Below, piece after piece: positions 7,167 through 36,395 of a DNA stretch of 64,000 bases (position 1 is its first letter; each line of letters starts with the position of its first letter). The notes below the pieces were generated by a model, which made no database searches, was not told the origin of the DNA, and was given only the letters and a program-made list of their open reading frames with translations. A program made the position numbers and the translations under genes. This DNA comes from Spirochaetota bacterium (GTDB lineage Bacteria > Spirochaetota > UBA4802 > UBA5550), in contig OY760686.1 of NCBI GenBank assembly GCA_963663865.1, forward strand, positions 576,001-640,000, written 5' to 3'.

Positions 7167-7167
7167 A

Positions 7168-17839: not shown

Positions 17840-20800
17840 TTATGACCTGATAACTTTTCTGTCTATCGTCACAATCTGCTCATTCTCTTTTTCTATCAGG
17901 TCGACCACATCGTCTCCTGACCTGAAGCGAAGTACGTTGAGCATGAATATCTCAAGCTTGTTGATGATATTCGGAGGCAGAATCTCTCCGTCAATTTCAA
18001 CTGACATTACCGGCAGGCGGTTGTCTCTCGCCCAGGGGGTAATGAGACCTTCAATAACTCGGCCAATCAGGCAGGCAAAAGGCGAAATATTTACCACGCC
18101 CGAGTAGTCGTCCATGAGCGCTGTTGCGGCCGCTCCGGACGAGATTGAGATTTCTGATTCGAGCTCATTTGTAACGAAAAGTGTATTCGCGTTGCGCATG
18201 ATCCTGTTCATATCATGCGGTGTTTTTGGAATAAGGCCTGTGGCTGACAGAGCTTTTTTGACCTTCTTGTCTACATGGTGTTTCCACATCTTCTCAATGT
18301 GCCACATGATGATATCTCTGTGCGTCTTTGAGAAAAGTTTTTTGTAGAAAGGCAGAAGAGCATATTTCTTGTCAAGCTCATACTTTCTGGTATAGTCGCA
18401 GTAGTAAATCCATTCCGCAATGCCCGAAACCTTGGCAATAATTCCGCGCTTGCTCATGAGCATAATAAGCTCGTCGACAGCGAAGTCATCGCGGCGCACG
18501 TAAATTTCCCCGACGACAAGCACCTTTGGTGTCTTTGCCATTTCCCGTTTAAGCGGAATGCGGGAAATTTCAGAGGCTATCCGTCTGAGAGCCGGAACCA
18601 TCTTTGAAGCGTCTTTTTCTGAGATGTCAATGAGCTCCTGCCACAGCTCATCGTATTTTGCAATGGCTGTCTGCGGGTCAACGGCGCATGTTCTCAGTGA
18701 AGTCTCAATATCCTTCATATAATCAGAAGCTACAACGCTCCACCACATATGCTTTGAAAACTCAGGGCCAAGCTCGTTGTATGAATTTTCCGAATCAAGC
18801 GTTACAACGATAACATTCTCAAGTCCCATATCCTTAAAGAGGTTTTCGTAGAAAATGTAGTACTGCCCCGTACGACAGGGTCCTCTTGTTGTCGGGCAGA
18901 ACACCATGTATATTTCAGTCCGGTCATATCTGTCGGACATGAGATACTGAAGGGCCTCGCCGAGAACAAGCTGTGACGGAAGGCACTCCTTGCCTGACAT
19001 GTTATTTCTTGCCATCTGGAGCACGAAAGAGTCCGGAACAGGAAGCGCTTCGGCGTTTACCCCGACGCCTCTGAGAGCCGCGGCCATAAGCTCTGTTGAC
19101 AGCCTTCCCATGTTTGCCAGAAGCATCTTGACCCTGGGGTTGTTGAAAATAGGTATTTGCTCACCAGTCTTTTCATCGAGAAGGTGCAGTGGATCAGCTC
19201 CGTTATTAATGAAGCGGAGGCCGTTGTCAAAACGCTCTTTTTCCCCGTGAGAGATGTTTCTGTAGCCTTCAATGATATCAAGGAAGGCTTCAACGCGCGT
19301 GTCAACACCGGCGTCGGCAGAATGCGAATCAAGCTCAAGAACCAGGAAGGGCTTAATCCCCATGAACCATCTGACATAGTGCAGCATGAATGAATCGGGA
19401 GCGCATGAAAAGTTTGTGATATACGTGACGAAAATGTTATCCTCTTTCTTCAGGAAGGAGGCTGCCCTCATGTCCTGCTGTCCGTAATACCAGTACATGT
19501 TGTCAAAAATCTTTGCTTCTTTGAAAGGAAGCATGTCGAAAGGTATTATCGAATAGCCGCGGCTCGTAAACTTCAAGGGTATTCCCATATTCGCATCTTT
19601 TGTGAAGGCGTTGTATGGGCGACCGAGCAGGGCAATGACAGGCCTGTCAGCTTTGCGTGCATCTTCGAGGGCTTTTACTCCCATCTCCTGATACGCTGCA
19701 GCGAATTCGAGCTGTTTAGCGTATGCCTTATTGAAAGCCGAGCGCGTCTCGCTGTCTGACACGCCTAATGATTTCCCGAGTTCGTAGAATCCTTCAAGGG
19801 CCTTCTCTGTTCCGTATTTAAAGCTTACAATGGGAGCGAGGAAGCGTGATTCATCAATATCCGGGAATGCCTTCTTGATATAGTATGGAAGACTCTGCGT
19901 GATGGGGCAGAAGTTGGCGTGAACATCCTTTTCGTAGCTCGGCATATCCCGGAAATGCGGCACAAAGATATAGTCGAAACCTCTGGATATAATGTTCTGA
20001 ACCGCGCCGTGAGCAATCTCTGCCGGAAAGCAGTAGGCGCTTTCCATCCTGGCGACTCCCTCATGTTCTATTTCATCAGAGAGTGCGATCTCAATACCGA
20101 GTTCATGGAAGAACCAGGAATAGAGCGGCCACAGGGTGTAGATGGAGAAGGCTTTTGGAATACCTACGGTAAAATCACGTTTTTTTGAGAATGTCTCAGT
20201 AGACGGGGCGAATGTCTTAAAGAGCATTTCGTCGCGTTTCTCAATGTAATTGAAAATGCTGTTTTCTTCGAATACCTTTTTCTTTCTTATGTTGGCGTAC
20301 TTGTTACAGCGTCCTCCAAACATGTACTTGTGCCCGTTAACGTTAAGAACTCGTATCGGACAGTAATTGTCGCAGGCCTGGCATTTAAACTCGCGTTCAT
20401 ATACAATCTCTGAGGCGAGAATGGTGTCAATATCGAATGAGCCTTTCTCAATGAATCCATCCTGGAGCTTTTGTTTAGCGAGGATTCCGACGCCGAAGCA
20501 GCCGAGCAGCTCCGGGTCTGGCGGAATTACAATGTTTTTGTTGAGGAGCATGGCGAATGCGAGAGGAACAGCTTTGTTCTTCGCGACACCGCCCTGAAGA
20601 ACGATGTTCTGGCCTACCGACCTGTTGCCTACGACACGGTTCAGGTAGTTCGCGACAATTGAAGTTATGATGCCTGCTGTAATATCCTCCCTTGACGAAC
20701 CATGCTGTATGGCCTTTCTAATGTCGGAGTTGATGAACGCTGAACATGTTTCGCCGAATTTGAGAGGAGCCTGCGCTTTAACCGCGATATCGCCTATCTC

Positions 20801-22162
20801 TTCAACGTTGGTTATGTTAAGGTCTCCCGATGCTGACTCCTCAAGGAAGGAGCCGGTACCGGCTGAACATGCTTCGTTCATGGCATAGTCGATGGGGACC
20901 TTGTTTTTCAGGTAAACGTACTTGGCGTCCTGTCCGCCAATCTCAAAGATGGTGTCGATGTCTGGCTTGAAATAGGTTGTTCCAACAGCGTGGGCGATTA
21001 TTTCATTGTAAACGGCCGGCGTCTCCAGAAAAACACCGAGTATTTCACGTGATGATCCGGTCGTTGAGGCGATTGATATGCTGATCTTTTCGTCGCCTAT
21101 TTGCTCCTTGAGCTGCTTTTTTACTTCCACAAGGCAGTTTTTAAGGGCGGCAACAGGATCGCCATGCGTGCGGCCGTAGTGGGCAGCAACTATCTCTTCT
21201 GTTTCAATGTCGATGAGGGCGACTTTTGTAGTCGTTGAGCCGCCGTCCACGCCGAGAATATATTCACCGCCTGCTCTGGCTTTGCCGCGTCTGGGTTCAA
21301 GATAGGTGACTTTACCTTCGGCTGTTGTGAGAGACGGCAGTCTTGAGAAGCCGGCGTTGTTGGGTTTGTATCTTTTTGATTCATCGGGAAGAGTGCTGCC
21401 GGCTTCCTTTGCAAGAATCGCTGCGCCAAGGGCTTCAAAGTATGAAGCTTCTTCCGGGATGATGAAGTTTACTTCAGGGAGCTTTTCTTTTACGTACTGA
21501 ATGATGTACTTATTTCTTGTTACTCCGCCCGCGAGAATTACAGAGCCTTTCTCTATGTGAGCTCTTCGGAGGAAGTCAACTACCTTTGTGGCCATGACAT
21601 CGCTGAGCGACAGAACTATGTCATCTTTTGTGGCTTCGCCTTTGTTGAGTTTGTGCGTACAGTCGCTCTTCATAAAAACGGAGCAGCGAGATGAAAGCTT
21701 ATGGACTTTTGATCCTTCTGCTACCGAGCTAACGTCAGTGAGTTTCATGTTCATTCGGCCGAGCTGCTGCTTGAAAAATTCGCCTGTTCCTGACGCGCAT
21801 TTATTGCCGGAGAAGCTGGTAATGATTTTCCCGTCTGAATCAATGGTATAAACAACAAAGTTTTCACCGCCAAGAGAGACGACAGCACGGGCGTCATATT
21901 TAAGCGCTTTTAGTGATTCTTCAATACAGACTGATTCAAGAACATTGTTGATATTAATCAGATAACGGCCCTCAGTTCCAGTCGCAAGACATTTTGTGTC
22001 AGATGGTATGTCCGCCCTGCTCAGAAGTGACTTTAGCTTGTCGAAGAAATTTCCTTCATGGTCAAGGACTTCCTTCCAGACGATTTTGTCATCTTCCAGC
22101 ATGACCGCCTTAATGCTTGATGAACCTATATTGATTCCAAGACTGCGCATGATATCCTCCAA
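17840..22162 (-). CDS. Fused acyl-CoA dehydratase activase (two BadF/BadG/BcrAD ASKHA domains + DUF2229/dehydratase-like domains)
   Basis: 'GINIGSSSIK', 'NKCASGTG', 'GVDGGSTTTK', 'EIGGQDAK', 'MNEACSAGTG', 'YCFPAEIAHG', 'GRPYN', 'NFSCAPD' and 'TRVEAF'. Confidence 0.9.
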   Translation of the reverse strand: MEDIMRSLGINIGSSSIKAVMLEDDKIVWKEVLDHEGNFFDKLKSLLSRADIPSDTKCLATGTEGRYLININNVLESVCIEESLKALKYDARAVVSLGGENFVVYTIDSDGKIITSFSGNKCASGTGEFFKQQLGRMNMKLTDVSSVAEGSKVHKLSSRCSVFMKSDCTHKLNKGEATKDDIVLSLSDVMATKVVDFLRRAHIEKGSVILAGGVTRNKYIIQYVKEKLPEVNFIIPEEASYFEALGAAILAKEAGSTLPDESKRYKPNNAGFSRLPSLTTAEGKVTYLEPRRGKARAGGEYILGVDGGSTTTKVALIDIETEEIVAAHYGRTHGDPVAALKNCLVEVKKQLKEQIGDEKISISIASTTGSSREILGVFLETPAVYNEIIAHAVGTTYFKPDIDTIFEIGGQDAKYVYLKNKVPIDYAMNEACSAGTGSFLEESASGDLNITNVEEIGDIAVKAQAPLKFGETCSAFINSDIRKAIQHGSSREDITAGIITSIVANYLNRVVGNRSVGQNIVLQGGVAKNKAVPLAFAMLLNKNIVIPPDPELLGCFGVGILAKQKLQDGFIEKGSFDIDTILASEIVYEREFKCQACDNYCPIRVLNVNGHKYMFGGRCNKYANIRKKKVFEENSIFNYIEKRDEMLFKTFAPSTETFSKKRDFTVGIPKAFSIYTLWPLYSWFFHELGIEIALSDEIEHEGVARMESAYCFPAEIAHGAVQNIISRGFDYIFVPHFRDMPSYEKDVHANFCPITQSLPYYIKKAFPDIDESRFLAPIVSFKYGTEKALEGFYELGKSLGVSDSETRSAFNKAYAKQLEFAAAYQEMGVKALEDARKADRPVIALLGRPYNAFTKDANMGIPLKFTSRGYSIIPFDMLPFKEAKIFDNMYWYYGQQDMRAASFLKKEDNIFVTYITNFSCAPDSFMLHYVRWFMGIKPFLVLELDSHSADAGVDTRVEAFLDIIEGYRNISHGEKERFDNGLRFINNGADPLHLLDEKTGEQIPIFNNPRVKMLLANMGRLSTELMAAALRGVGVNAEALPVPDSFVLQMARNNMSGKECLPSQLVLGEALQYLMSDRYDRTEIYMVFCPTTRGPCRTGQYYIFYENLFKDMGLENVIVVTLDSENSYNELGPEFSKHMWWSVVASDYMKDIETSLRTCAVDPQTAIAKYDELWQELIDISEKDASKMVPALRRIASEISRIPLKREMAKTPKVLVVGEIYVRRDDFAVDELIMLMSKRGIIAKVSGIAEWIYYCDYTRKYELDKKYALLPFYKKLFSKTHRDIIMWHIEKMWKHHVDKKVKKALSATGLIPKTPHDMNRIMRNANTLFVTNELESEISISSGAAATALMDDYSGVVNISPFACLIGRVIEGLITPWARDNRLPVMSVEIDGEILPPNIINKLEIFMLNVLRFRSGDDVVDLIEKENEQIVTIDRKVIRS

Positions 22163-23598: not shown

Positions 23599-23728
23599 AA
23601 TGAAAATGTTCTCCTGGCTTTTAAAAATATTTGCTTTCACGTATAATGTTATAAGATATAAGTAGCATGGAAAATTATGGGGTATAATTGTCAAGTGTCA
23701 TTGTTGAAAAAAATATTAAAAAATAAAA

Positions 23729-23752
23729 GACTCATATTTCATTGTGAGTCGA
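23729..23752 (+). promoter_or_regulatory. Shared 24-bp regulatory box, copy 1 (upstream of IS110-like gene)
   Basis: GACTCATATTTCATTGTGAGTCGA, matching consensus GWCTYAWRWTKCATYRTGARDCGA seen four times in the island. Confidence 0.65.
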
Positions 23753-23863
23753 ACTATTACATGCAATGTGGTTCATTATTTATGATAAGTATAAAACTTA
23801 TAATGATTATAGTAAAATTATGCAGTATCATCCGCCAATAACAAGGTTGATAATAGATAATGC

Positions 23864-25003
23864 ATGATTATGGAGCTTGTAATGGATGGTGCCTGCAGGT
23901 CTGTATGCGGAATGCTAATTGATGAAAATGTTATCAAAGCATGTATTACTACCTTTGAATCAAAAGGAATAACAAAGATTAAAAAAAAGAGCTTTGATGC
24001 TAGTTGCTCAAGAATCTCAGATGTAAAAAATTGGCTTAAAACACATGAAGTGAAATCGGTAGGCGTCATATCCCCCGGTCCGAGTTGGAGGTCTGTGTGG
24101 GGGGGGCTTGAAAAAGAATTCGATCTATGCCTGACACATAAAGCTGATCTGGAGAATATTTGTTTTAATGATTATAATTGTAAAGAAGAAACTGAGATTA
24201 TAGCTGAATTAATCTATAAAGGTCAATTGAGAACAAAATACGTCCCGTCAATTTTAATTTGGGAACTCAGGGATTTAACAAGGTTAAGGTGTTCATTAGT
24301 GCATAATATTGCTTTGTTGGGTGCACAGATTCACAATACAATGCAGAAAGAGGGTGTTTTACTGCCAGAGATGGATAATGATGAAAACACAGGATTTATT
24401 AAAAAATACATTTTTAATAAATGGAAAGCAATCGAATCAAAATGGAATTGTGAGATTAGCGATCATTCAAAATTTCTTCTTAACTACTATTCGAGTTGTT
24501 TGGAAAATGAAGAAGAAAAAATAAAGTTAGTTTCGACGAGAATAGATCAAACCTTATTACCATTTAATAAGATTATTCGTAAAGTAATGATGATTCCGGG
24601 CATGTATAAAACAATTGCTCAAAATATATTGGCTGAAACTGGATTTAAAATGAATCATTTTTCATCACCGGAGGAATTAGCTGCCTGGGCGGGGGTATTT
24701 ACTAATAAAAATAAAGAAAATAATATGACAGGAAAAAATGGGAAGACCGGCCGGGATTGGATTCGAAAATTTCTTAAAGAAGCATCTATATCTATAGTAA
24801 ATGTAAGAAAATCTGAACTGTCAGCATACTATAATAAACTTCTTCCACGTTTTGGAATTAGAGCCTCTATGAAGAGAATTGAATACTCAATATTATATTT
24901 TATTTACATGATTATAGAAAACGACAGGTGTTATAGCGAACTAATCAATGAATTTTTAAAAAAAGAAGAAGAATATTTCAAAAACAAAGATCATGTGAGG
25001 TAA
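23864..25003 (+). CDS. IS110-family recombinase-derived protein with degenerate catalytic motifs (intact ORF)
   Basis: IS110 scaffold is kept ('WELRDLTRLR', 'MIPGMYKTIAQNILAETG.KMNHFSSPEELAAWAG', 'LSAYYNKL'). The usual GxDVH, MESTG, KTDxxDA and ESAGK motifs read GMLID, VISPG, YNCKEET and KENNM. Confidence 0.8.
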   Translation: MIMELVMDGACRSVCGMLIDENVIKACITTFESKGITKIKKKSFDASCSRISDVKNWLKTHEVKSVGVISPGPSWRSVWGGLEKEFDLCLTHKADLENICFNDYNCKEETEIIAELIYKGQLRTKYVPSILIWELRDLTRLRCSLVHNIALLGAQIHNTMQKEGVLLPEMDNDENTGFIKKYIFNKWKAIESKWNCEISDHSKFLLNYYSSCLENEEEKIKLVSTRIDQTLLPFNKIIRKVMMIPGMYKTIAQNILAETGFKMNHFSSPEELAAWAGVFTNKNKENNMTGKNGKTGRDWIRKFLKEASISIVNVRKSELSAYYNKLLPRFGIRASMKRIEYSILYFIYMIIENDRCYSELINEFLKKEEEYFKNKDHVR

Positions 25004-25164
25004 CATATTATTGATATTTTTTTAAAATCGTTTCAATTACAATTCTAAGCTGAAAAGATATTTTAATCCAGGCTGTATATCTGCATAGTAGCCGCATTCC
25101 TTTAGTTTATCTATTCTCCATCTCCTTGAACCAGTTTCCGAATAATCTCTGATTAAAAAAATGA

Positions 25165-25188
25165 GTCTTATAATGCATCATGAATCGA
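25165..25188 (+). promoter_or_regulatory. Shared 24-bp regulatory box, copy 2 (upstream of GH3-1)
   Basis: GTCTTATAATGCATCATGAATCGA, preceded by an A-tract. Confidence 0.6.
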
Positions 25189-25425
25189 CTTCGGTATTAT
25201 TTGAAGATCTAATTAGTCAATTAAATGCACAATAATAATCAATGTATAAGGGGGGCTATTAATTGTGAAATTTTAAGTTCAGATTATTTGTTAATTCAAC
25301 AGGGACAGTAGTTTAAAAAAAGTTCGAGGAGGGAATAAAGGGAAAATCTAAAGTTAGCAAATTGTGAATAACACATACTGAGTTGTTAATTTGTATGAAT
25401 ATTAATAGTAAAGGAGATCAATAAT

Positions 25426-27546
25426 ATGTTTATTAATACCCTAAAGAGGATTCTGGTCCTGGCTCTATTTATTTCAGTTATAGCAGTTGTGACAGGGTGT
25501 GGAGATTCGGATGACGGAAAATCTGTGACTCAGCCTGATCTGGGATACCGAAACTCTACTATTCTGGATGTTGATGGGTTTCAGTTTAAAGATCTTAACA
25601 AAAACGGAGTGTTAGACGCATACGAAGACTGGCGACTTCCCGCTGAAGACAGAGTAAGCAATCTTTTATCCCTAATGTCGATTGAGGAGAAAGCCGGACT
25701 ATTTTGTGCGCCTCAAACCTCAATGGGTGGAACTTTGGAGGCCGTCATTGATACTTATAAAACGTTAACCGAACAAAATTTGAGAACAAGAATTATCGGA
25801 ATGTCAAATTTTAAGCCCAATGTCCGTGCTCAGGCAAACAACCTTATTCAGGAAATGGGTGAAGAGAGCAGGCTGGGTATTCCATGGCTCAACATGTCAG
25901 ATCCGACTTTAGCAGCCGGTGCTGATTATGGACAGGGTTCCACTGTAGGCGAAGGAGCCGGCGGGATGGCAGACTTTTCTATTTGGCCGGCTAAACTCTC
26001 ATCAACCTCAGCTTATGATGTTGAGCATGTCAGAAAGTGGGCAAAGGCCTCACATGAGGCATGGCTTGCTATTGGAGTCAGAGTGTTCCTCGGACCTCAA
26101 ATCGATCTTCCGACGGAACCTCGCTGGGGAAGAAATACCAGTACCTTTGGTACTGATGTAGAGATGGCTTCCGCAATGACTGCTGAATGGATAAAAGTAT
26201 TTCAGCCAAATGGGAAGGAGCTTGGAAAGGATGCAATTGTGTGTGTTATGAAACACTGGCCGGGTGAAGGACCTCAAGAGGGAGGATATGATGGTCATGT
26301 TGCTGCTGGAAAGTGGGCAATTTATCCAGGAAATAATTTTGATTATCACCTTAAACCGTTCATTGCCGGATTTGAGGCTGGTGGTATTTCCTGTATGACA
26401 TATTACCCAATTCCGGCATCTGGAAACTGGACAGCAGCTGATGGAGTTATAGACGGACGGACAATTGAACAGGTCGGGGCAGGGTTTAACGCTGAACTTA
26501 TGACAAAAATGTGGAAAGAGCATTACGGCTATGATTATACATGGTTTGTTTCAGACTGGATGATTTTTGAGAATAGTCCGCTTGTTGACCCAAGTGTTTT
26601 TATGGGAGCGTGTCATGGAACTGAAGTGCTGACTCACGAACAGCGTGTTGCAAAGTCTATACTTGCCGGTCTGAATATTTTCGGCGGTACAGAAGACCCT
26701 TCCTGGTTTGTTGGTGCTTACAATGAAGGACTTGTCGCTGAGGAAGATATTAACTATACAGTCGGAAGAACTCTGGAAATAATGTTCAAACTCGGTCTGT
26801 TCGAAAATCCATATGTTGACGAAAATGCAGCAGCAGAAGCTTTCGCAAAACAGGAATACTGGGATCAGGGTGCCGCGGCAATGGCTAAATCTCAGGTTTT
26901 AATAAAAAATAAAGAAAATCTTGTTCCGTTAGATGAAGGAAAGAAAATATTTCTTTATGGATCTGATTTTAGATCTTCTGACGAAGGTGCTGATGTAAAT
27001 TCACAAATTCTTGATGTCGCAGAAGATTACGGAGATGTAATTAATGATAATGATGAGTATGGCAGCGATGATGAAAAAATTATAGCTGCTGATTATGTTA
27101 TACTCAGGATTACATCGCCTAAATGGTATAGCGCGATGGCTCCATTTCCCCTTTCGAGGGATGAGGTTCAATATAGTCAATATATAAACCATAACGGAGT
27201 TAAATGCTATAATTATGACAATACTCTGGGTGCTGTTGATCATGTTGTAGAGGTTCTTAATACTGCAGGAAATCCCAACAACACTAAAGTTATTGTCCAG
27301 GCTTCAATATCGACTGTAGTTATAACGGAAATCACCGCTTTGTCTGATGCGTGTGCTGTTGATTTCGGTGGAATCCCAGATCGCTATGTGTTCAACAATC
27401 TTTTCGGGCGTTCACATTATTCAGGTAAACTGCCCGTAGGACTTCCTGACTCGGATGATCTGGTTCAAAACGGATATGCTGATATCCCCGATGACGATAG
27501 TGTAATATATCGCAGAGGGTATGGATTAACCACAAGCGCAAAATGA
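25426..27546 (+). CDS. Glycoside hydrolase family 3 lipoprotein (GH3-1)
   Basis: Lipobox VVTGC; 'KDLNKNGVLDAYEDWRL', 'EPRWGR', 'KHWPG', nucleophile motif 'VSDW' and 'LGLFENPY'. AAGGAG RBS. Confidence 0.9.
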   Translation: MFINTLKRILVLALFISVIAVVTGCGDSDDGKSVTQPDLGYRNSTILDVDGFQFKDLNKNGVLDAYEDWRLPAEDRVSNLLSLMSIEEKAGLFCAPQTSMGGTLEAVIDTYKTLTEQNLRTRIIGMSNFKPNVRAQANNLIQEMGEESRLGIPWLNMSDPTLAAGADYGQGSTVGEGAGGMADFSIWPAKLSSTSAYDVEHVRKWAKASHEAWLAIGVRVFLGPQIDLPTEPRWGRNTSTFGTDVEMASAMTAEWIKVFQPNGKELGKDAIVCVMKHWPGEGPQEGGYDGHVAAGKWAIYPGNNFDYHLKPFIAGFEAGGISCMTYYPIPASGNWTAADGVIDGRTIEQVGAGFNAELMTKMWKEHYGYDYTWFVSDWMIFENSPLVDPSVFMGACHGTEVLTHEQRVAKSILAGLNIFGGTEDPSWFVGAYNEGLVAEEDINYTVGRTLEIMFKLGLFENPYVDENAAAEAFAKQEYWDQGAAAMAKSQVLIKNKENLVPLDEGKKIFLYGSDFRSSDEGADVNSQILDVAEDYGDVINDNDEYGSDDEKIIAADYVILRITSPKWYSAMAPFPLSRDEVQYSQYINHNGVKCYNYDNTLGAVDHVVEVLNTAGNPNNTKVIVQASISTVVITEITALSDACAVDFGGIPDRYVFNNLFGRSHYSGKLPVGLPDSDDLVQNGYADIPDDDSVIYRRGYGLTTSAK

Positions 27547-27638
27547 TGTATAGTTTTGGGATGATTTATTGGGTGACATGATGAATTGATGAACATGCAT
27601 TATGTCACTCATATAGCTGCCAAAAAACAGTGTTGTAA

Positions 27639-27683
27639 TATGAATCTCAGCTCAAAGATTATTATAAAGAGCTGAGATTCATA
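27639..27683. terminator. Strong hairpin after GH3-1 (probable terminator)
   Basis: TATGAATCTCAGCTC-N15-GAGCTGAGATTCATA perfect inverted repeat. Confidence 0.6.
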
Positions 27684-27808
27684 AATAAATGTAGCTTATA
27701 ATCTGGACTCTCCGAGCAAAACCTCACCCCACCTCAGCTTTGTTATAAAGAGAAGTTTCCGAGCGTATCCTAGAAAACGGGATGTATTCAATTCATTCTA
27801 AAATATGT

Positions 27809-27832
27809 GTCTCAAGTTGCATCGTGAAGCGA
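27809..27832 (+). promoter_or_regulatory. Shared 24-bp regulatory box, copy 3 (upstream of GH3-2)
   Basis: GTCTCAAGTTGCATCGTGAAGCGA, with a TGTTAATCT extended -10-like element about 30 bp downstream. Confidence 0.55.
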
Positions 27833-28100
27833 AATCGTTGTGAATTCATGACTTAATCAGGTGTTAATCTTTAATGTATCTATTGATGCAAGGTCTTTTT
27901 CAATCAAGCTGCAGGCACAGGTGCTCTCGACACCTGTCTGATATAGCGTTGGATTGTAAGGTATAAACTGTAAAGAACAAAGTTATAGCATATAAATAAT
28001 ATATGGGGTTGTGAGCATGACCTGTTTTATAAAATAGAACCGGCATCACTTTGTCCCAATATATATTTATATAGATATCAACATATTTTTAGGAGGGTCA

Positions 28101-30254
28101 TTGATAATGATCAAAAAAGTAATTTCAGTTGTTACGCTGATTACAGCTGTCTGTGCATTTATGGGATGCGACGGTGATGGTGGATCGGAGAAAAAAGAGA
28201 CCAGTGATGAATGTGTCAGTATCTATTGTAAAGACGGAGAACTGGTGCAGCCTGTTATAAAGGTTGCTTCAGAACTTGAATCAGGGGTTCAGGTAAGCCT
28301 TTCAGCCGACTTGATGAAATCAAAAACTGTTATTGAGGTTGATGGATGGAGATTTAAGGACTCTAATGGTAATGGAGTTCTTGATGATTATGAAGATTGG
28401 CGCCTTTCCGCCAAGGAAAGAGCAACCGCTCTGGTCAATATGGAGGACTTCACCCTTGAACAAAAAACTGCATTGCTTGGTATAGGCGGCGGTTCAATGA
28501 GTGATGATGGCTCAGTGACTGCGGAAAATACACAGGGAATAGAAATACAGGAAGGTGTCAGGTTTGCTCTCTTGAGGATGATGGGCGGTTTCGGAACAGC
28601 AAAGTCTCCTGAGAATGTTGCTCTGTGGATGAATAACACACAGGCGTATTGTGAAAGCTCGTCACACGGACTCTGCTTTGTAATGTGGTGCGACCCGGAG
28701 AGCTATCAGGGAGGAGAGTCCGACACATGGACCAGAAACTTCCCAAGTCCAATGGGAATGGTTGCTACAAATGATCCTAATGTTGCACGTCAATACGCGG
28801 ATTGTGTTAGAGAAGAATATATGGCTGTCGGGATGAGGGGACAGTATGGCCCACTGGCGGACTGTGCAACCGAACCGAGGTGGACACGCTGGGAAACAGC
28901 TTTTGGTGACGCTCCAGAGGTTACCGCTGAATACACAAGACAGGTAATAAAAGGCTTTCAGAATGACGGGGATACAGCGAATGGTATAGCTGCGATTATG
29001 AAGCATTTTCCGGGACACGGTCCGCAGCAGGATGGAGAAGATCCTCATCAGAGCATGATGGGCGGAACAGATTACAGGGGAGAATTCCTTGTTTATCCAG
29101 GCGGACAATTTGAGAGCCATCTGATTCCATTTAAAGCGGCTATTGAAGAAGGAGCTATGGGTTGTATGCCATGTTATGCCGCGACGATTGGAATTGGTGA
29201 TCCAGAGCAAGTATCTTCGTGTTACAGTACATTTCTCATTAATGATCTGCTTCGAGATGAGCTCGGATTTGATGGCATGATAACTGCAGATTGGGGTGCA
29301 ACTGGTAATGACGCTTTTGGAATGAAGGGGCTGCCAATGAGCTACTATTGTGCAAAGTTCCTTGAAGCAGGTTCAGACCAGCTGGACAATGATGGTGCTC
29401 TGATGAAAACTGCGTACGAAGAAGGATTCATATCAATGGATCAGATTAACGTATCGGCTATCAGATGTGTAGAATTCATTATGAAGTTGGGATTGATGGA
29501 GAATCCGTATGTTGATGTTACTGCGGCAGTGTCAAAGCTTAGAACAGAAAAAAATGTCACTAACGCTAAAAATGCTCAGAAAAAATCGATTGTGCTTCTG
29601 AAAAATGAAACAAAAAATGACAGCGTTTCTTTGCCATTCTATAATGACGGAGATACTTATTCAAAAACACTGCAGGACCAGAATGGAGACGGACTTGTTA
29701 AGATATGGTATAATGGTACAGATCCAACAAGTACAGTTCTTCAGGATACTCAATATGTAGAAAACAGCGGTGTAACAAACATTTCCTTCACGGCTGATCT
29801 TTCTGAAGCTGATTTCGCAGTAGCGCGTTTCCAATCTGTTAACAACACAAAGAACGGTATACAGGATTTAAGATTTACTTCAATGCCTTCAAAACTTCAG
29901 TCGGCGATTGAAGCTCAGGCAACAAACACAAATTTAAAGATTATTGCTGTTATGGAAATGGGCGATGCTTCAATAATAGCCGGAGGAGAGGGAGGAATTG
30001 ACGTTTTAACCCCCTGCGATGCTTTCCTCGTTGATTTCAGCGCAAGCGATACTGAGTTGCTGGAAGTGTTGTTCAAGATAGATTTTGAAGATTTCACAAG
30101 CTCTCTTCCAACTGAGATTTGTTCATCGCAGGCGGCAGCTGAGGAGCAATTTGAAGATGTAGGATCAGATTCTTTTGATCCGACCTTCGCCAGAGGATTC
30201 GGAAAAACATATTCCGGAACGCAATCAAGCGGCGGCGGTGGATGGCCATTTTAA
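28101..30254 (+). CDS. Glycoside hydrolase family 3 lipoprotein (GH3-2)
   Basis: Lipobox AFMGC; 'KDSNGNGVLDDYEDWRL', 'EPRWTR', 'KHFPG', 'TADW' and 'SIVLLKN'. AGGAGG RBS. Confidence 0.9.
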   Translation: MIMIKKVISVVTLITAVCAFMGCDGDGGSEKKETSDECVSIYCKDGELVQPVIKVASELESGVQVSLSADLMKSKTVIEVDGWRFKDSNGNGVLDDYEDWRLSAKERATALVNMEDFTLEQKTALLGIGGGSMSDDGSVTAENTQGIEIQEGVRFALLRMMGGFGTAKSPENVALWMNNTQAYCESSSHGLCFVMWCDPESYQGGESDTWTRNFPSPMGMVATNDPNVARQYADCVREEYMAVGMRGQYGPLADCATEPRWTRWETAFGDAPEVTAEYTRQVIKGFQNDGDTANGIAAIMKHFPGHGPQQDGEDPHQSMMGGTDYRGEFLVYPGGQFESHLIPFKAAIEEGAMGCMPCYAATIGIGDPEQVSSCYSTFLINDLLRDELGFDGMITADWGATGNDAFGMKGLPMSYYCAKFLEAGSDQLDNDGALMKTAYEEGFISMDQINVSAIRCVEFIMKLGLMENPYVDVTAAVSKLRTEKNVTNAKNAQKKSIVLLKNETKNDSVSLPFYNDGDTYSKTLQDQNGDGLVKIWYNGTDPTSTVLQDTQYVENSGVTNISFTADLSEADFAVARFQSVNNTKNGIQDLRFTSMPSKLQSAIEAQATNTNLKIIAVMEMGDASIIAGGEGGIDVLTPCDAFLVDFSASDTELLEVLFKIDFEDFTSSLPTEICSSQAAAEEQFEDVGSDSFDPTFARGFGKTYSGTQSSGGGGWPF

Positions 30255-30284
30255 GTAGTATGTTTAACAAAAAGAATTACTAAA

Positions 30285-30333
30285 TAATAATAAAAAGGCA
30301 TCCGCTTATATTGTGGATGCCTTTTTATTATTA
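30285..30333. terminator. Bidirectional rho-independent terminator
   Basis: TAATAATAAAAAGGCATCC-loop-GGATGCCTTTTTATTATTA between convergent genes. Confidence 0.85.
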
Positions 30334-30446
30334 ACGCAGATTTTATTTAAGGATGTTTAGTTGATAATAACTATACGTTTCAATAATAAATAACTTTGTA
30401 GTTGAAGATTGGGATATGTTTAAACATTGCTTAATAAATTATAACA

Positions 30447-31559
30447 TTATGGACAATTGATTAGATTTTTCTTGTACTCAGTAGGTGAAACTCCTTTGTA
30501 CCTTCTGAACGCCCGGTTAAAAGAGGCCTTAGAGTTAAATCCTGAATTTAATGCAATGTGTAAAAAATTGGTTTTGTCCGGATTCTTCATGTTGCGGATT
30601 ACATCGTCAATTCTTAATCTATTGATATAATCTGTAAAACGAATTCCAAATTCTGAATTTATTACCTGTGAAAGAGTGTTTTTGTGAACACCAATGTAGT
30701 TTGCTATCGTTGATATCTTGATCTCTGAATCAAGATATAGTTTATTATTTTTTACTGTGTTGATAAATGTCTTTAATATAATGTCCTTCTTGTCTAATGG
30801 TATCACCTTCATATAGTTCGATTTGCTTCTGTGTGTTGTCTGAGAAATAGAATTTATTATTGAATGATATGAAAGGAAGAGTATTATAATAATTGTTTCA
30901 AATAACTCAAAAAATGATAAATTACTCAAAAATGATTGATTTCCTTCTATAATTGATTCGAAAGACATGTCGATAAAATGAGACACTATAAAGAAAAAAG
31001 AGTATAAAATAATTGTTCTTGCCAAAAGATAATTTATAATCTTAGAAAACCACTTCAGGTTTCTGTCTGGGCTTTTCTTTGTCAAAGGGAAAATAAATAT
31101 TTTAAGAACTCCTAAATATACAATCAGATGGATTGATGTAAGAATAGCATTTATCCGGCCAAGCTGGTCCCAAAAAAAACCATAGTTTGTGTAGAGATAT
31201 AAGTGTGCTGATGTGCTGAATAGAATTGCAATCACAGGAGGCAGATGTGGGTATATACTACCTTTATTAAGTGCTACCCCGAAGATTGATAAACCATAAA
31301 GATATATTAGGATATTCACCAGTATTGCACTGGTCATATCTGGTATTGCTAAAGTTAAAAAGAGATATTTCTGATCATAGCCTATACCTCCAAAAAAGAA
31401 TGTTCTAGACATCCAAAAAATAAAACTGTTAAAGGCTTTTATTGCAATGAAATAAATAAGAATAAGATTAGAACGGTTTTTATTTTTTGATAAAATAAAT
31501 ATTGTTAATACGCTCTGCAGTAGAAGAAAAAAAAGCGTAGAAATGATTAAATATAGCAT
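30447..31559 (-). CDS. Membrane-anchored AraC-family transcriptional regulator
   Basis: Multi-TM N-terminus; AraC HTH 'LYLDSEIKISTIA...LSQVIN...FTDYINRLRI...IALNSGFNSKASFNRAFRRYKGVSPTEYK'. Confidence 0.92.
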   Translation of the reverse strand: MLYLIISTLFFLLLQSVLTIFILSKNKNRSNLILIYFIAIKAFNSFIFWMSRTFFFGGIGYDQKYLFLTLAIPDMTSAILVNILIYLYGLSIFGVALNKGSIYPHLPPVIAILFSTSAHLYLYTNYGFFWDQLGRINAILTSIHLIVYLGVLKIFIFPLTKKSPDRNLKWFSKIINYLLARTIILYSFFFIVSHFIDMSFESIIEGNQSFLSNLSFFELFETIIIILFLSYHSIINSISQTTHRSKSNYMKVIPLDKKDIILKTFINTVKNNKLYLDSEIKISTIANYIGVHKNTLSQVINSEFGIRFTDYINRLRIDDVIRNMKNPDKTNFLHIALNSGFNSKASFNRAFRRYKGVSPTEYKKNLINCP

Positions 31560-31628
31560 ATATTACCCATTTACGCTAAATCCGGATATTACATATTATA
31601 CCCGGATTCAGCGTCATATCAACAAAAA

Positions 31629-33812
31629 TTATTCAGGGAAAGACAGTCCATACTCTATTTTGCACCAGTCGGAAGAGCTGATGTTATCATCAGCTACTGC
31701 TGGATTCTGTAATTCCGCATCCTCATTAGTCGAGTAAAGGCTTGCGGGTAATTTCCCAGTGATTTCAAGTGAATTTACCGAGTGTAATACATCAAACAGA
31801 TATTTTGTTGGCGAGCCCCAATAAGCGATCAGACAGTCACAGTTGTTATAGAGTTCATCAAGAATTGCTGATGATCTTTTCATTTTGACGATAACAATCA
31901 AAAGGCTGTTATTATCATTCGATCCACCAATAAATTGATAAAGTTCTTTAACCTTATTTAAACCGTTTATATAGAATTCGTCCGCGTAACCATCGTCTTC
32001 ATTCGTAAGGTTATAATAGTAACTCAAAAGACCATCAGGATCACCTGTCTCGTCATTAATCCTTTCTGGAGCATCTACTGTAATAACGGTGTAGTCTGAA
32101 TAGTGAGCTCTTGCCTCTTCGATTGTTGGATAAGCCCCTTCAGTTAATCCCATATCACTCCAACTAAAACTGTTGATTACAGTAGAATAACCGGAAGCTA
32201 ATTGATATTGATAATCAATTTCAATTGAGCTGTACCCGCTTACATAGTAGCTGTTTGAGCCAGCTTGTTTGTAGGGTATCCCTGCATCCATTGGTAAAAA
32301 TGCTTTGTTATTTTTTACTGTATTTTTAAGTAATATAATTTGATTGAGAAGAGTATCTGTTGCTCTGGAAGAGTAATCAGAATTGTCTTCAATGCTTTCG
32401 GCTGAAGAAGCATCAATTACACCATCATCATTAACTATATAGGGATTGTCGAAAAGCCCCAGATTAAACATAAGTGTTAGTATTTTTTCTGAAGAAGTAT
32501 CAAGGCTTCCGCTCTCAAGTTCAGAAATTCCGTTAGAAAGGGTTGCAGCATCTTCAATTTTTACATTGTTTATTACATCACACCCGGCATTGATCATGGA
32601 AATAGCTCTATCCAGAGTCGAAGCTTCGGTTACGTTTAACATGTTTGTTCGATAAAGTGCGTCAGTTTCTGAAAATACCAAACCACTGAAGTCATGTTCA
32701 GCCAGCTTGGTTTTAAGTATATCACTGTTATATGATATCTCCGTTGCCTGAACGTCAGAGACACCCTCTGGAGCACCATAACCGGCCATAACACCGGAAA
32801 CGCCTGATTCAATAGCTTTATCAACAGGTAAAAGATGGGTGTTAAAGTTGGTGGCGTTTCCGTAGGCTATAAGTCCGGAAGAGATTGATGCTTTGGCGTC
32901 AATGCCATTCTTTTGGGGCCCCATTCCCGGAAAGTGTTTAATTACACTTGCGACGCCTTCGGAGTTAAGCTCTTCTTGTCCCTGCAAACCTTTAATAATG
33001 CCAGCTGTAATTTCTCCGACAGTTTCAGCATTTTCTCCAAAGCAATTTTTACTTCCATTCCATCGTGGTTCAGTCGCTATATCGGATTGTGGAGCAAAGG
33101 CTAAACGTACGCCGATAGACCTGTAACAGTCTTTAAGGTATGAGCCGAATTCAAAAGGTAATTCAGTGTCGCTAATCGAGCCAGCGGCAATTCCAGGTGC
33201 AGGAGCGAAGTCGATCATGCCTACGGCAGTCGTCGGATATGACGGGAGCATGTCTGAAGTTAATAGAATCGGAATGCCAAGTCTTGATGATTCAGCAATT
33301 TTTTGTAACTCATTTGCATAATTTGCTCTTGCTTTGATCTTGTAATTGTTGGCATTCGTAAAAAATAATCTTGCATTTTGGTTTGTGATTGCATCATTTT
33401 CTGTGCCAATCATAGCGCCAGTGCTGTCCCCGGGCCCTGGGAGGATAGTGTTGAATAACAAACCGGCTTTCTCTTTGTTGTTCATAAGACTTAGCAGGTT
33501 ATTTACTCTTTCCGAGGTCGTTTTGGACCAATCTTCATAAATGTCAACTTCTCCGTTGCCGTTTAAATCCTTATAATAAGTAATACAGCCATTTTCATCT
33601 TCTATTTGAATGATGTCTTTAATTCCTGCATCTGGAACAAGTGTTTGTGTAGACGGACAAACAGGATTGTCATCGTCATCATTTGGTATAGGCTCGCTGC
33701 TGGTATTATCACCACAGCCCGCGAATAAAATGGAAAACAATGTTCCGAGCGCTGCCAAAAAAATTTTTTTTGATGTTAACATACTTATATCTCCTATGGA
33801 ATTTCTTTTCAT
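31629..33812 (-). CDS. Glycoside hydrolase family 3 lipoprotein (GH3-3; atypical nucleophile motif)
   Basis: Lipobox LFAGC; 'KDLNGNGEVDIYEDW', 'EPRW', 'KHFPG' and 'LGLFDNPY'. The (S/T)DW position reads 'FSET'. Confidence 0.85.
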   Translation of the reverse strand: MKRNSIGDISMLTSKKIFLAALGTLFSILFAGCGDNTSSEPIPNDDDDNPVCPSTQTLVPDAGIKDIIQIEDENGCITYYKDLNGNGEVDIYEDWSKTTSERVNNLLSLMNNKEKAGLLFNTILPGPGDSTGAMIGTENDAITNQNARLFFTNANNYKIKARANYANELQKIAESSRLGIPILLTSDMLPSYPTTAVGMIDFAPAPGIAAGSISDTELPFEFGSYLKDCYRSIGVRLAFAPQSDIATEPRWNGSKNCFGENAETVGEITAGIIKGLQGQEELNSEGVASVIKHFPGMGPQKNGIDAKASISSGLIAYGNATNFNTHLLPVDKAIESGVSGVMAGYGAPEGVSDVQATEISYNSDILKTKLAEHDFSGLVFSETDALYRTNMLNVTEASTLDRAISMINAGCDVINNVKIEDAATLSNGISELESGSLDTSSEKILTLMFNLGLFDNPYIVNDDGVIDASSAESIEDNSDYSSRATDTLLNQIILLKNTVKNNKAFLPMDAGIPYKQAGSNSYYVSGYSSIEIDYQYQLASGYSTVINSFSWSDMGLTEGAYPTIEEARAHYSDYTVITVDAPERINDETGDPDGLLSYYYNLTNEDDGYADEFYINGLNKVKELYQFIGGSNDNNSLLIVIVKMKRSSAILDELYNNCDCLIAYWGSPTKYLFDVLHSVNSLEITGKLPASLYSTNEDAELQNPAVADDNISSSDWCKIEYGLSFPE

Positions 33813-34181
33813 TTGAAATAAAACACTTTAATAAAAAGATTAAATGTTTAAGCAAGATATCTTAAACATGATTTTGGTTGGAACGTTTTGACGGCTAAGC
33901 TCCAAAAGGCGAGAGGAAATTACGTCTAAATCCATAAGCATCAGGAGGCATAACCACTTCCCGTAATAAAAATGTAATTGTATTTATACCTCCTAAATAT
34001 TAATTAATTCCATAATCCCAGTTTCACCGCAATACAGTAAGCCTTAATGCGGAGTGAATTGCTTGAGACTACATTTTTGGGGCGATTTCGAATGTAAGTT
34101 GTTTGGTAATGAACATCTGACATCAAAGCAAACCCGTCTTAATATCCTATTCTATAATTTTACATTATAATTATAAAAAGG

Positions 34182-34205
34182 TCGTCTCATGATGAAATAT
34201 GAGTC
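34182..34205 (-). promoter_or_regulatory. Shared 24-bp regulatory box, copy 4 (upstream of GH3-3/AraC unit)
   Basis: Minus strand GACTCATATTTCATCATGAGACGA; 21/24 identical to copy 1. Confidence 0.65.
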
Positions 34206-34359
34206 TTGTTTTTTTAATTTCATGCCTTAGATTTAATGAATTTAATAAATATTGAGATCAAAGGTCGTGTAGTAGAAAGGAGATAAGAATTAAAATAATT
34301 CAGTTGCTATTATTTGCATTTATCTGATGAATTGCAGATTATAAATAACTCGAGGTTAA

Positions 34360-35643
34360 GTGATGGCAGACTATTCAAAAATGTGGGAAGACCTTGGTCT
34401 TGATCTGGGTGCTCATGATTCATTGTTGTCAGTACTGGGCGGCGCTTATTCGGAAATATTCCTGTCTCAGAAGAACAGACCCGAAGGAATGAAGTATTTT
34501 GATTTTGTTATGAGTGAAGTTCATGGATTGCGTATTAAGGAGATTGTTGACGCTAAAAAACAGGGCAAGAAGGTGATTGGCTCTTATTGCGTATTTGTTC
34601 CGGAAGAGCTGATTCTTGCTGTTGACGGCGTTTCCGTCGGGCTCTGTGCGGGGGCCGAGTTTAATTTTGAAGGCGCAGAGACAATGCTTCCAAGAAATAC
34701 CTGCTCGCTTATAAAATCAGCATTTGGGTTCAAGCTCGGAAAAGTATGTCCATATCTCGAAGCAAGCGATGTCGTAGTGGGAGAGAACACATGCGACGGT
34801 AAAAAGAAATCGTATGAAATGCTGAAGCCTCTTCTTAAAGACCTGTATATTATGGATATGCCTCAGATGAAGTCTGAAAAAGGACGCGAGCTCCTGAAAA
34901 CAGAATATCTCAGGTTTATTGACAAGCTTGAAGAGGTCAGCGGTAATAAGGTGACAGCAGAATCCCTCAGAAAGGGTATTGAGATAGTAAACGCTAAAAG
35001 AAAGGCTGTCAACAGGCTTTCCAGATTGAGATCTGCTGATCCTGCGCCAATTTCCGGGCTTGATGCATTGCTGGTTAATCAGGTTTTCTTTTATGATGAT
35101 CCCGTAAGGTTTACGGCTTCTGTCAACAGTCTATGCGATGAACTTGAGGAGAGGGTGAAGAACAACATCGGAGTTTTCCCAAAAGGTACTGCGCGGGTTG
35201 TTATGTCCGGCTGCCCCATGGCTGTCCCGAACTGGAAGCTTCCTTCAATCGTTGAGTCAGGAGGCGCTGTTATAGTGGGTGAGGAATCATGTGTCGGAGA
35301 AAGGGGTGTTAGATGGCTTGCTGACACAAAAAGTGAATCCCTTAATGAAATGATTGATAGTCTTACGGAAAGATATTTCAACATTGACTGTGCCGTTTTT
35401 ACGCCAAACCCATCAAGAAGTGAATACCTGCAGGAGATGGGGGACAAACTCAACGCACAGGGGGCAATCCACTATAATCTTCAGTTCTGTCAGCCGTATA
35501 TTATGGAAAGCGCCATGATGGAGAAAAAAGTCGAGAGCTCAGGCCTGCCAATGCTCCGTCTCGAAACCGATTACAGCCAGGAAGATGTTGGTCAGTTGAA
35601 GACAAGGGTCGAGGCTTTCGTTGAGCGAATAAACGGCAAATGA
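34360..35643 (+). CDS. Double-cubane cluster protein (DCCP; 2-hydroxyacyl-CoA dehydratase D-component family)
   Basis: Cys motifs 'YCVFVPEE', 'GLCAG', 'RNTCSLIKS', 'NTCDGKKK', 'EESCVGER', 'IDCAVFTPN', 'QFCQPY'; ends 'GQLKTRVEAF'. Closely follows the C. hydrogenoformans DCCP pattern. Confidence 0.88.
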   Translation: MMADYSKMWEDLGLDLGAHDSLLSVLGGAYSEIFLSQKNRPEGMKYFDFVMSEVHGLRIKEIVDAKKQGKKVIGSYCVFVPEELILAVDGVSVGLCAGAEFNFEGAETMLPRNTCSLIKSAFGFKLGKVCPYLEASDVVVGENTCDGKKKSYEMLKPLLKDLYIMDMPQMKSEKGRELLKTEYLRFIDKLEEVSGNKVTAESLRKGIEIVNAKRKAVNRLSRLRSADPAPISGLDALLVNQVFFYDDPVRFTASVNSLCDELEERVKNNIGVFPKGTARVVMSGCPMAVPNWKLPSIVESGGAVIVGEESCVGERGVRWLADTKSESLNEMIDSLTERYFNIDCAVFTPNPSRSEYLQEMGDKLNAQGAIHYNLQFCQPYIMESAMMEKKVESSGLPMLRLETDYSQEDVGQLKTRVEAFVERINGK

Positions 35644-36395
35644 GATATGCCGGTATTGATTTAGGTTCGCGAACAGTCAAGCTTGCCATTCTGGAAGAAG
35701 GCAGGCTTGTCTTTTCCAGAAAAGCTGCTTCATCCTACAATCCTGTTGAGACAGTGATGGAGCTCATTAACGGGGCTAAATATGATGTTATAACAGCGAC
35801 CGGGTATGGAAGGCATCTTATCAAGGAGAAGCTGGGCTGCGGAGTTATCAGCGAGATATCCGCTTTTGCCCGGGGAGGTTCTTTTCTCGAAAGCAGATGC
35901 ACAGCTATTCTTGATATAGGCGGACAGGATACCAAGGCGATATCTCTTGATCATAATGGAGGCATGTCTCGGTTCGAAATGAACGATAAATGCGCTGCCG
36001 GGACAGGACGATTTCTCGAGGTCATGGCGGCATCTCTGGGTTATTCCTTTGATGAATTTGGTGAAGCGGCCCTTGAAGCAGAACATCCCGTCAAAATCAA
36101 CAGCATGTGCACTGTGTTCGCGGAATCAGAGGTTGTTTCCCTGATTTCGCGAGGTGTTCGGCGTGAGGATGTAGCTCTTGGTATTCACAGGGCAATCATT
36201 GGGCGTTCAGTAAGCCTGCTGAAGCGGGTTGCTTCGCCTGAGGGAGCTCTGCTTTTTGCTGGAGGTGTTGCTCTGAGCAAGACCATGAAGCAATTGCTGG
36301 AAAAAGAAACCGGAAGAGACGTAGTCGTCCCTGATGACCCGCAGATTGTGGGCGCAATAGGAGCGGCGTTGTCATGCAAGCCGTCTGAATTGTGA
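35640..36395 (+). CDS. ATP-dependent activator/reductase (DCCP-R / HgdC-type)
   Basis: 'GIDLGS', 'ATGYGR', 'DIGGQDTK', 'MNDKCAAGTG' and 'CTVFAESE'; overlaps the DCCP stop. Confidence 0.92.
   Translation: MRYAGIDLGSRTVKLAILEEGRLVFSRKAASSYNPVETVMELINGAKYDVITATGYGRHLIKEKLGCGVISEISAFARGGSFLESRCTAILDIGGQDTKAISLDHNGGMSRFEMNDKCAAGTGRFLEVMAASLGYSFDEFGEAALEAEHPVKINSMCTVFAESEVVSLISRGVRREDVALGIHRAIIGRSVSLLKRVASPEGALLFAGGVALSKTMKQLLEKETGRDVVVPDDPQIVGAIGAALSCKPSEL

Follow-up and report, generated by a model that had tools for sequence, protein, structure and literature searches.

What might a bridge recombinase be kept for once it can no longer recombine? The question is raised by a gene in a 64,000-nucleotide (nt) stretch of a Spirochaetota genome (contig OY760686.1, positions 576,001 to 640,000, forward strand), called the window here and numbered from its first letter. 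The gene encodes a protein of the IS110 family, whose active members are bridge recombinases, and it lies downstream of a 24-bp box that also precedes three genes of glycoside hydrolase family 3 (GH3). A preliminary description of the locus, made from the letters alone, proposed a catalytically dead, domesticated IS110 factor. The evidence assembled below, all of it comparative, favors a related account: the gene belongs to a lineage-specific family of IS110 descendants, and on balance we judge its products to be probable exapted, non-catalytic and predicted nucleic-acid-binding partners of modules made of GH3 glycosidases and AraC-family regulators.

The IS110-like gene is a single unbroken frame in the open reading frame (ORF) listing of the window (Table 1). 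It contains no stop, against 14–47 in the remaining five frames of the same stretch, and at its length and composition (33% GC) a frame would be open by chance with a probability of about 10^-15, which bears out the earlier claim of an intact ORF of 379 amino acids (aa). Its probable start is the in-frame ATG at 23882, preceded at a distance of 6 nt by GGAG and used by the public gene call P0001 (373 aa). The protein has the RuvC-like, coiled-coil and Tnp domains of the IS110 architecture, and the alignment to Pfam that had been suggested places both defining domains above their cut-offs: PF01548, RuvC-like, at 30.7 bits (cut-off 29), and PF02371, Tnp, at 36.4 bits (cut-off 21.3). A profile of the protein and its paralogs aligned by hhalign with that of 15 canonical IS110 proteins over 364 columns (probability 100, E 2e-54). 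With the single protein, phmmer found no match among Protein Data Bank sequences, and a profile was required to match the chains 8wt6 (IS621) and 9t56. The NCBIfam equivalog for IS110 RNA-guided transposases, NF033542, scored 79.2 bits, below its cut-off of 140. Among the PHROGs the protein matched a generic transposase family only, and PADLOC recognized no defence family, with just a chance-level 13.5-bit match for P0046.

The active site is where the protein departs from its relatives. Recombination by IS621 requires D11, E60, D102 and D105, which form the Asp-Glu-Asp-Asp (DEDD) tetrad, together with S241 in the Tnp domain, and mutation of any one of the five abolishes it (PMC11208158). The canonical IS110 profile aligns to the IS621 chain in 8wt6 at the corresponding GID, EATG, KTDTVDA and YESGS motifs. 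In the window protein, MAFFT alignment with the 15 canonical proteins places L18 at the first Asp (D1), I69 at the Glu, Asn at D3, Glu at D4 and Asn at the Ser; hhalign reads L, I, Y, E and K/N at these columns, and hmmalign to the canonical profile reads L-I-N-E-N. The three methods differ solely at the loosely aligned D3 and Ser loops, the latter of which bears N or K and varies in length and sequence across the family, and none of them recovers an Asp at D1, a Glu at the second position or the Ser. Within the same hmmalign alignment, 136 of 213 rows read DEDDS, the others being mostly fragments or DEDDT. The preliminary description, which had judged the tetrad and serine substituted by eye, was thus essentially right, and the motifs on which it relied (ELRDLTR, IPG..AQNILAETG..F.SPEELAAWAG, GMLID, VISPG, YNCKEET and ENNM) are all found in the translation. 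At the level of sequence, these alignments show a protein that lacks recombinase chemistry. It is an IS110-family protein by homology, but it falls short of the family's functional marks: the DEDD tetrad, the serine, the equivalog score and mobility; nor did Rfam recognize a bridge RNA beside it.

The window protein is one of nine such proteins in its genome (3,156,400 bp; G000). A search of this genome returned seven further open frames of 376–420 aa with 23–32% identity to the window protein. When all 5,658 stop-to-stop frames of 100 aa or more were searched with a family profile, eight members scored 409–525 bits and a ninth scored 57 bits. The ninth (217357–218382, minus strand, of the genome contig; locus L032:1453-2457; 335–342 aa) is N-terminally degenerate, keeps only an LRELNRYR linker and a Tnp-like part, has no Pfam match, and lies directly upstream of a GH3 paralog. 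Pairwise identity among the nine is 21–52%, and the genome holds no canonical copy, so that the near-identical copies expected of an active mobile element are missing. Because PF01548 and PF02371 match only the loci of this family, no canonical IS110 is available to act in trans. All nine frames are free of in-frame stops, against 8–47 in the other frames. Their catalytic columns have gone separate ways, reading N-D-D-D-K, V-Q-K-E-G, V-Q-H-E-K, S-V-P-I-D, I-M-Y-E-S and others by hmmalign. None of the nine has an Asp at D1, and their alignment contains no conserved acidic, Ser or Tyr column.

What the family has retained lies elsewhere. The invariant columns are W75, L122, L135, R140, R142, I227, I244, P245, G246, A252, I255, E258, G260, F266, W275 and G277, which correspond to W75, the (E)LRDLTRxR linker and the IPG..A..I.AE.G..F..W.G motif. 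These parts belong to the linker and to the helices with which the Tnp domain opens. In IS621, dimers form through the coiled coil, and the loops of the bridge RNA are held by the Tnp domain (PMC11208158). The Tnp domain is also the best conserved part of the family, with a mean pairwise identity of 30% against 25% for the RuvC-like domain and 24% for the coiled coil. The 15 canonical proteins, taken from unrelated sources, have 46%, 47% and 38% in the same three domains, and are thus less divergent (38–47%) than the paralogs of this one genome (24–30%). Family identity is below the canonical value in every domain, and therefore evolution has been faster after the loss of catalysis, most of all in the RuvC-like domain.

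In the L003/L004 pair, 50–52% identical depending on the alignment method, dN is 0.38–0.40 and dS 1.0–1.7, giving a dN/dS of 0.24 (NG86) to 0.37 (LWL85); this is the only unsaturated pair of paralogs, and its high dS makes the ratio rough. The neighboring genes of the same two loci have ratios of 0.13–0.16 (GH3) and 0.25–0.31 (AraC). Orthologues of four of the paralogs are intact in other public assemblies, at 98.1, 96.9, 97.2 and 80.1% identity and with in-frame indels only, such as the single 3-residue indel of the 96.9% orthologue. One assembly has split gene calls in otherwise identical sequence, which look like homopolymer assembly errors. Orthologue DNA for a codon comparison was found neither in metagenome contigs (query P0193) nor in genome contigs (query alignment A8). 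The suggestion that the dead ORF is under selection is therefore sustained by the open frame and by a dN/dS below 1 in the sole unsaturated pair, with the reservation that this pair consists of paralogs from one genome at high dS.

The family is confined to this lineage, as far as sequence searches define it. phmmer against 1.84 billion cluster representatives gave five proteins at E<=1e-30: the query itself, three paralogs from its own genome or near-identical orthologues of them, and P0047, an extra paralog from a second assembly that has no orthologue of the window protein. Neither the 63 other genomes of the same taxonomic family nor the 121 other genomes of the order gave a family-level match to the profile; the best match outside the own genome, in G017 (192 bits), was rejected as a member, being a canonical IS110 with DEDD and Ser. 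In a tree with 31 canonical rows (30 hand-picked from stored matches, plus the G017 protein), a branch with SH-aLRT support of 99 separates these from the nine family rows; the end branches of the family are long, and long-branch attraction is a caveat to this grouping. The simplest reading of the tree and the catalytic columns would be a single origin, with D1 lost in the ancestor.

A further property of the family is the company it keeps. All nine paralogs lie within 2 kb of a GH3 paralog, eight of them within 400 nt and on the same strand. These GH3 neighbors (630–850 aa, 24–83% identical to each other) match PF00933 with or without PF01915 and align to the consensus KHFPGxG...TSDWG; KHFPG and SDW are the motifs that define GH3. 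In the ninth case, L006, the GH3 gene is 1.8 kb away and an IS3-type ORF with an rve integrase core lies in between (L034:10915-11769, plus strand; G000:C1:60915-61772); a 5S rRNA gene is found about 600 nt upstream of L006 (L034:13584-13700). Seven of the nine paralogs also have, within 3 kb, an AraC-family gene for a protein of 370–450 aa whose N-terminal part is hydrophobic and multi-helical and whose C-terminal part carries an AraC helix-turn-helix (HTH). A profile of this membrane AraC has 27 matches in the genome. The order is IS110-like gene, GH3, AraC at L003, L004 and L005, and also at L032 with a 2.9-kb gap; GH3, IS110-like gene, AraC at L007 and L008; and IS110-like gene, GH3 at L002 and L006. 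The window has the IS110-like gene followed by two GH3 genes and then by AraC and a third GH3 in reverse. In most modules the genes are on one strand with gaps of 17–200 nt. The linkage anticipated by the preliminary description is thus real among the paralogs of one genome, but no orthologues with GH3/AraC synteny exist in other genera among the genomes searched, and all synteny comes from diverged paralogous modules.

The GH3 genes themselves form an expanded subfamily of 23 members with lipoprotein-type N-termini (for example at 436213–438570, 522649–524889, 1205942–1210822 and 2795589–2797799 of the genome), present in only one of 40 relatives searched (G037). In the GH3 tree, copies with an IS110-like neighbor are scattered through an 18-member clade with neighbor-less copies nested among them, a pattern that would fit an old association followed by losses. 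The IS110-like and GH3 trees agree on the L003/L004 pair and on L007/L008, whose GH3 genes fall in one clade, although the match is incomplete.

A second tie between the genes is the box. Its strict pattern, G.CT.A...T.CAT..TGA..CGA, has exactly four matches in the 3,156,400 bp (Table 1), each of which precedes, in the same orientation, either the IS110-like gene or one of the window's three GH3 genes, as had been claimed. Because the four sites themselves defined the pattern, it is its absence elsewhere, and not the four matches, that carries information. Allowing one mismatch adds one match, and allowing two gives 20 in total. An A-tract precedes each copy, the invariant blocks are spaced about 10 bp apart, and copies 2 and 4 are followed at 6 nt by a −10-like hexamer. 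Copy 1 is palindromic, and its pairing is not kept in copies 2 and 3. At L006, a 26-nt stretch stands before both the IS110-like gene and the adjacent GH3 gene with 25 of 26 positions identical. A relaxed pattern, G-N-[AC]-T-[CT]-N10-RTGARNCGA, occurs 14 times in the genome against 1–8 times in ten shuffles, and eight of the 14 precede IS110-like genes (window, L005 and L006) or GH3 genes (three in the window, L67 and L008); the relaxed pattern was written after these sites had been seen, and the remaining six serve as its control, equaling chance. From its A-tract, block spacing and −10-like hexamers, the box looks like a protein-bound operator or promoter element. Most simply, it would be the site of the module's own AraC paralog, with the conserved half read by the conserved HTH. 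The leaders of L003 and L004, otherwise diverged, share a 22-nt stretch, CCCTTGTCGGGRAGGACGACAG, about 141–146 nt upstream (L036/L037; approximately G000:C1:557056-557077 and 718827-718848), which may be the operator of those two modules. One contig of run X6 matches only 23707–23747 (40 nt, the region of box 1) and is unlike the window on both sides, so that the box may occur in other contexts in related organisms.

The same loci gave little sign of a guide RNA. Rfam at its gathering threshold recognized only a 5S rRNA and two tRNAs across seven loci, and at E<=5 around the IS110-like gene it added three matches far below threshold. Outside the box copies themselves, likeness or complementarity to the four box regions within the island that carries these genes was limited to words of 9–10 nt, none of them guide-like, in a 9-mer search made without a shuffle control or chance expectation. 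The 185-nt leader of the IS110-like gene folds better than all 200 of its shuffles (z −2.9), a value for which homology or covariation is unavailable; for the three GH3 leaders (z +1.3, −1.8 and −1.4) and for the 422-nt spacer after the IS110-like ORF (z +0.3), folding was no better than in shuffled sequence. The proposal of an RNA-guided or RNA-binding regulator of the glycosidases consequently went unsupported, with no Rfam match, no guide-like complementarity to the boxes and no excess structure in the GH3 leaders.

Together, these observations suggest how the modules may work. The family would consist of exapted IS110 descendants in which the fold scaffold has been kept, namely the RuvC-like domain, the ELRDLTR linker with its coiled coil and the helical Tnp domain with IPG..A..I.AE.G..F..W.G, and the recombination chemistry lost. 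It would have arisen once and then spread within the genome together with modules of a secreted or lipoprotein GH3 and a membrane-anchored AraC. The IS110-like gene would be driven by the box-type promoter/operator that also serves the GH3 genes, or would belong to a common operon with them. Its product has probably kept the ability to form dimers by way of the coiled coil and to bind nucleic acid with its Tnp domain. It could serve the module without enzymatic activity, at the box-bearing promoters, where the membrane-tethered AraC would have to hold DNA, or on module transcripts such as the long GH3 leaders. A bolder version can be imagined, which we hold to be rather unlikely as it stands: the dead protein holds RNA and/or brings DNA duplexes together by its Tnp domain and coiled coil, as a programmable or architectural co-factor of the tethered AraC that gathers the box promoters of a GH3 module together or at the membrane, with every paralog suited to the module it belongs to. 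Such a case would be the first exaptation of a bridge recombinase in bacteria.

Several observations weigh against so close a partnership. Fourteen of the 23 GH3 paralogs have no IS110-like neighbor, and some AraC-GH3 pairs lack one as well. In G037, from another family of the order, an AraC-like ORF is followed by two or three tandem GH3 genes with nothing IS110-like in the flanks covered (L040, L042, G037:C88:89431-96782). Because so many GH3 and AraC-GH3 loci, those of G037 included, do without the IS110-like gene, the protein is dispensable for such modules; the pairing of AraC with GH3 is therefore the older, to which the IS110-like gene was added in this lineage. All synteny moreover comes from paralogs of one genome, which descend from duplications, so that the nine cases are not independent. 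The IS110-like genes also evolve much faster than their neighbors: L003 and L004 are 52% identical in the IS110-like protein as against 83% in GH3 and 82% in AraC, with a dS of 1.0–1.7 as against 0.4–0.8, and the L002 and L008 IS110-like genes are 23% identical when their GH3 genes are 70% identical. With identity and dS so different, the history is therefore not simply a shared one, and constraint is weak.

The surroundings of the window gene add a further point of this kind. In run X5, one contig of depth 72 derives from a relative whose flanking genes are about 5% diverged; it joins 23696 to 34345, omitting 10,648 nt and carrying 145 other letters in between. The window's own form of the island is present in the same run at a depth of 2–8. 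The GC content of the island is 0.33–0.45, compared with about 0.47 in its flanks. Its absence from a related strain is as compatible with an accessory or mobile origin as with a host function. The description of the box as "host-type" was too strong for an island that is missing in a related strain and low in GC and for a family confined to one lineage: "domesticated host gene" overstates the case, and the gene belongs to a variable module.

This variability is the starting point of the best of the rival explanations, which we consider unlikely, though deserving of a hearing, that the gene is a historical hitch-hiker. An old cargo-carrying element of IS110 type, with the transposase at one end and GH3/AraC as cargo, would have multiplied and then lost its chemistry; the link to GH3 would reflect shared mobility instead of shared function, and any retention of the dead transposase would be for the benefit of the element, in maintenance, for instance, or in interfering with its relatives. 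The IS110-like gene does come first, at one edge, in six of nine modules, and in the window it begins about 170–185 nt from the left boundary of the strain-variable, low-GC island, a distance like that of a left end bearing a bridge RNA, and its leader folds better than all of its shuffles. Natural IS110 elements with large cargo are reported in a recent preprint (bioRxiv 10.64898/2026.08.14.744561), and the 14 GH3 paralogs without an IS110-like gene would be as expected. Yet no copy retains an intact active site, the genome is without a canonical IS110, and the closest pair is only 52% identical, so that transposition cannot have been recent. No common end sequences were found besides the box, which itself occurs also inside the island before GH3a and GH3b. 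Nine frames open at 21–52% identity need long-term selection, the box of the GH3 genes recurs in the promoters, and the arrangement of several modules is operon-like.

Far less probable is that the protein still acts as a recombinase or invertase, Piv-like or bridge-like, through a non-canonical active site or a partner enzyme, for instance by inverting or excising the island between box copies 1 and 4. Piv/MooV are IS110-related DEDD invertases that act on inverted repeats next to surface-protein genes. The two box copies are indeed part of a 40-nt inverted repeat, 83% complementary, near both ends of an island that is present or absent between strains. Piv, however, needs its DEDD residues, which are absent here. 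All five essential residues are replaced, differently in each paralog, when mutation of any one was enough to abolish recombination by IS621 (PMC11208158), and the family offers no conserved acidic, Ser or Tyr column in their place. Nor did the contigs of four runs include a strand-changing joint, which is weak evidence given that contigs drop rare forms. For want of an active site and of any listed inversion junction, the idea of a switch that inverts the DNA between these two copies was set aside. Least credible of all is a non-functional relic, a decaying pseudogene family open by accident, since very fast divergence, weak Pfam/NCBIfam scores and weak ribosome-binding sites in some paralogs are outweighed by nine of nine open frames, whose individual chance from composition is about 10^-7 to 10^-15, a dN/dS below 1, an intact orthologue at 80% identity and a conserved motif set.

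If the proteins are exapted partners of their modules, they have instructive counterparts. The bridge recombinases themselves (IS621 and ISCro4; PF01548 with PF02371) share the three-part architecture, the ELRDLTR linker and the IPG..AE.G..F..W.G helices of the Tnp domain, and differ in having DEDD and Ser, a bridge RNA, near-identical copies and no fixed GH3/AraC linkage. TldR, the TnpB-like nuclease-dead repressors, are alike in concept: an RNA-guided transposon enzyme has lost catalysis and been kept beside genes that it may control. They belong to a different protein family, and for them a guide RNA and promoter targets have reportedly been demonstrated, whereas the window family has no guide found and putative targets only. 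Viewed as a TldR-like system, the family combines the loss of catalytic residues with an ORF under selection, and it is linked to putatively regulated genes (nine of nine beside a GH3 paralog, all in one genome); the island 9-mer search and Rfam gave no adjacent guide RNA complementary to a promoter-proximal target. Nop5 and Nop56/58, proposed in a preprint (bioRxiv 10.1101/2024.06.21.599552) to be exaptations of IS110-like proteins, likewise have a RuvC-like fold that is catalytically inactive, a coiled coil and a helical domain that binds RNA, and they too have lost the serine element. Nop5 is an ancient archaeal/eukaryotic protein with known partners (fibrillarin and C/D RNA), whereas the window family is bacterial, young, lineage-restricted and without a known partner. 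Nuclease-dead Cas12f proteins of Bacteroidetes, which carry out RNA-guided transcription with extracytoplasmic function (ECF) sigma factors, are similarly tied to a dedicated transcription factor and to genes of polysaccharide-use type; their fold is different and their guide reportedly demonstrated (PMC12259090), and the analogy is a lead only. A full-text search of a limited literature library returned no catalysis-free bacterial IS110 homologue and no glycosidase/AraC link, the proposed Nop5 connection aside. By analogy, the family resembles TldR and the proposed IS110-to-Nop5 exaptation in kind.

Bridge recombinases of the IS110 family are the newest class of RNA-guided DNA enzymes, and here a family of dead descendants has been kept open through deep divergence and tied, gene by gene, to glycosidase/regulator modules with a common promoter element. 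Should RNA binding or DNA synapsis have survived in these proteins, they would reveal what the bridge-recombinase scaffold does without cutting, and would offer a natural "dead" bridge protein for targeting tools. In addition, the family marks a striking lineage-specific expansion of GH3/AraC sugar-sensing modules.

Table 1. Coordinates, in the window, of the island and of the genes and box copies within it.
Feature	Position	Strand	Remarks
Strain-variable low-GC island, 10.6 kb	23697..34344		Carries the IS110-like gene, three GH3 genes and a membrane AraC
Box copy 1 (GACTCATATTTCATTGTGAGTCGA)	23729..23752	+	112 nt before ATG 23864, 130 nt before ATG 23882
IS110-like ORF	23864..25003	+	379 aa; probable start 23882 (373 aa); without DEDD and Ser
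Box copy 2	25165..25188	+	238 nt before GH3a; TATTAT 6 nt downstream
GH3a, lipoprotein-type glycosidase, 706 aa	25426..27546	+	PF00933, PF01915; N-terminus ...VVTGCGDSDD
Box copy 3	27809..27832	+	269 nt before GH3b
GH3b, 717 aa	28101..30254	+	PF00933; paralog of GH3a
Membrane-anchored AraC-family regulator, 370 aa	30447..31559	-	Hydrophobic N-terminal ~240 aa and C-terminal HTH_18
GH3c, 727 aa	31629..33812	-	PF00933
Box copy 4	34182..34205	-	370 nt before GH3c; inverted relative to copy 1; TATAAT 6 nt downstream

Other parts of the window deserve a brief mention. On one side of the island lies a 1440-aa protein (17840–22162, minus strand) that we take to be a fused BcrAD/BadFG-type ATPase and dehydratase-like protein, and on the other side a separate pair of HGD-D and BcrAD activator genes was recognized by Pfam (34360–36395, plus strand). 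At 6555–8190 on the minus strand, in low-GC (0.34) sequence, a BglII-type restriction endonuclease is paired with an N6/N4 DNA methylase. Two lower-GC stretches, 47143–49553 and 62959–63585, encode an HTH_3 and Peptidase_M78 (ImmA/IrrE-like) protein, a leucine-rich-repeat protein and a DUF5343 protein, and may be further accessory DNA; the ORF at 47143–48255, which scored 13 bits with the profile of the IS110-like family, is this HTH_3/Peptidase_M78 protein and was rejected as a member.

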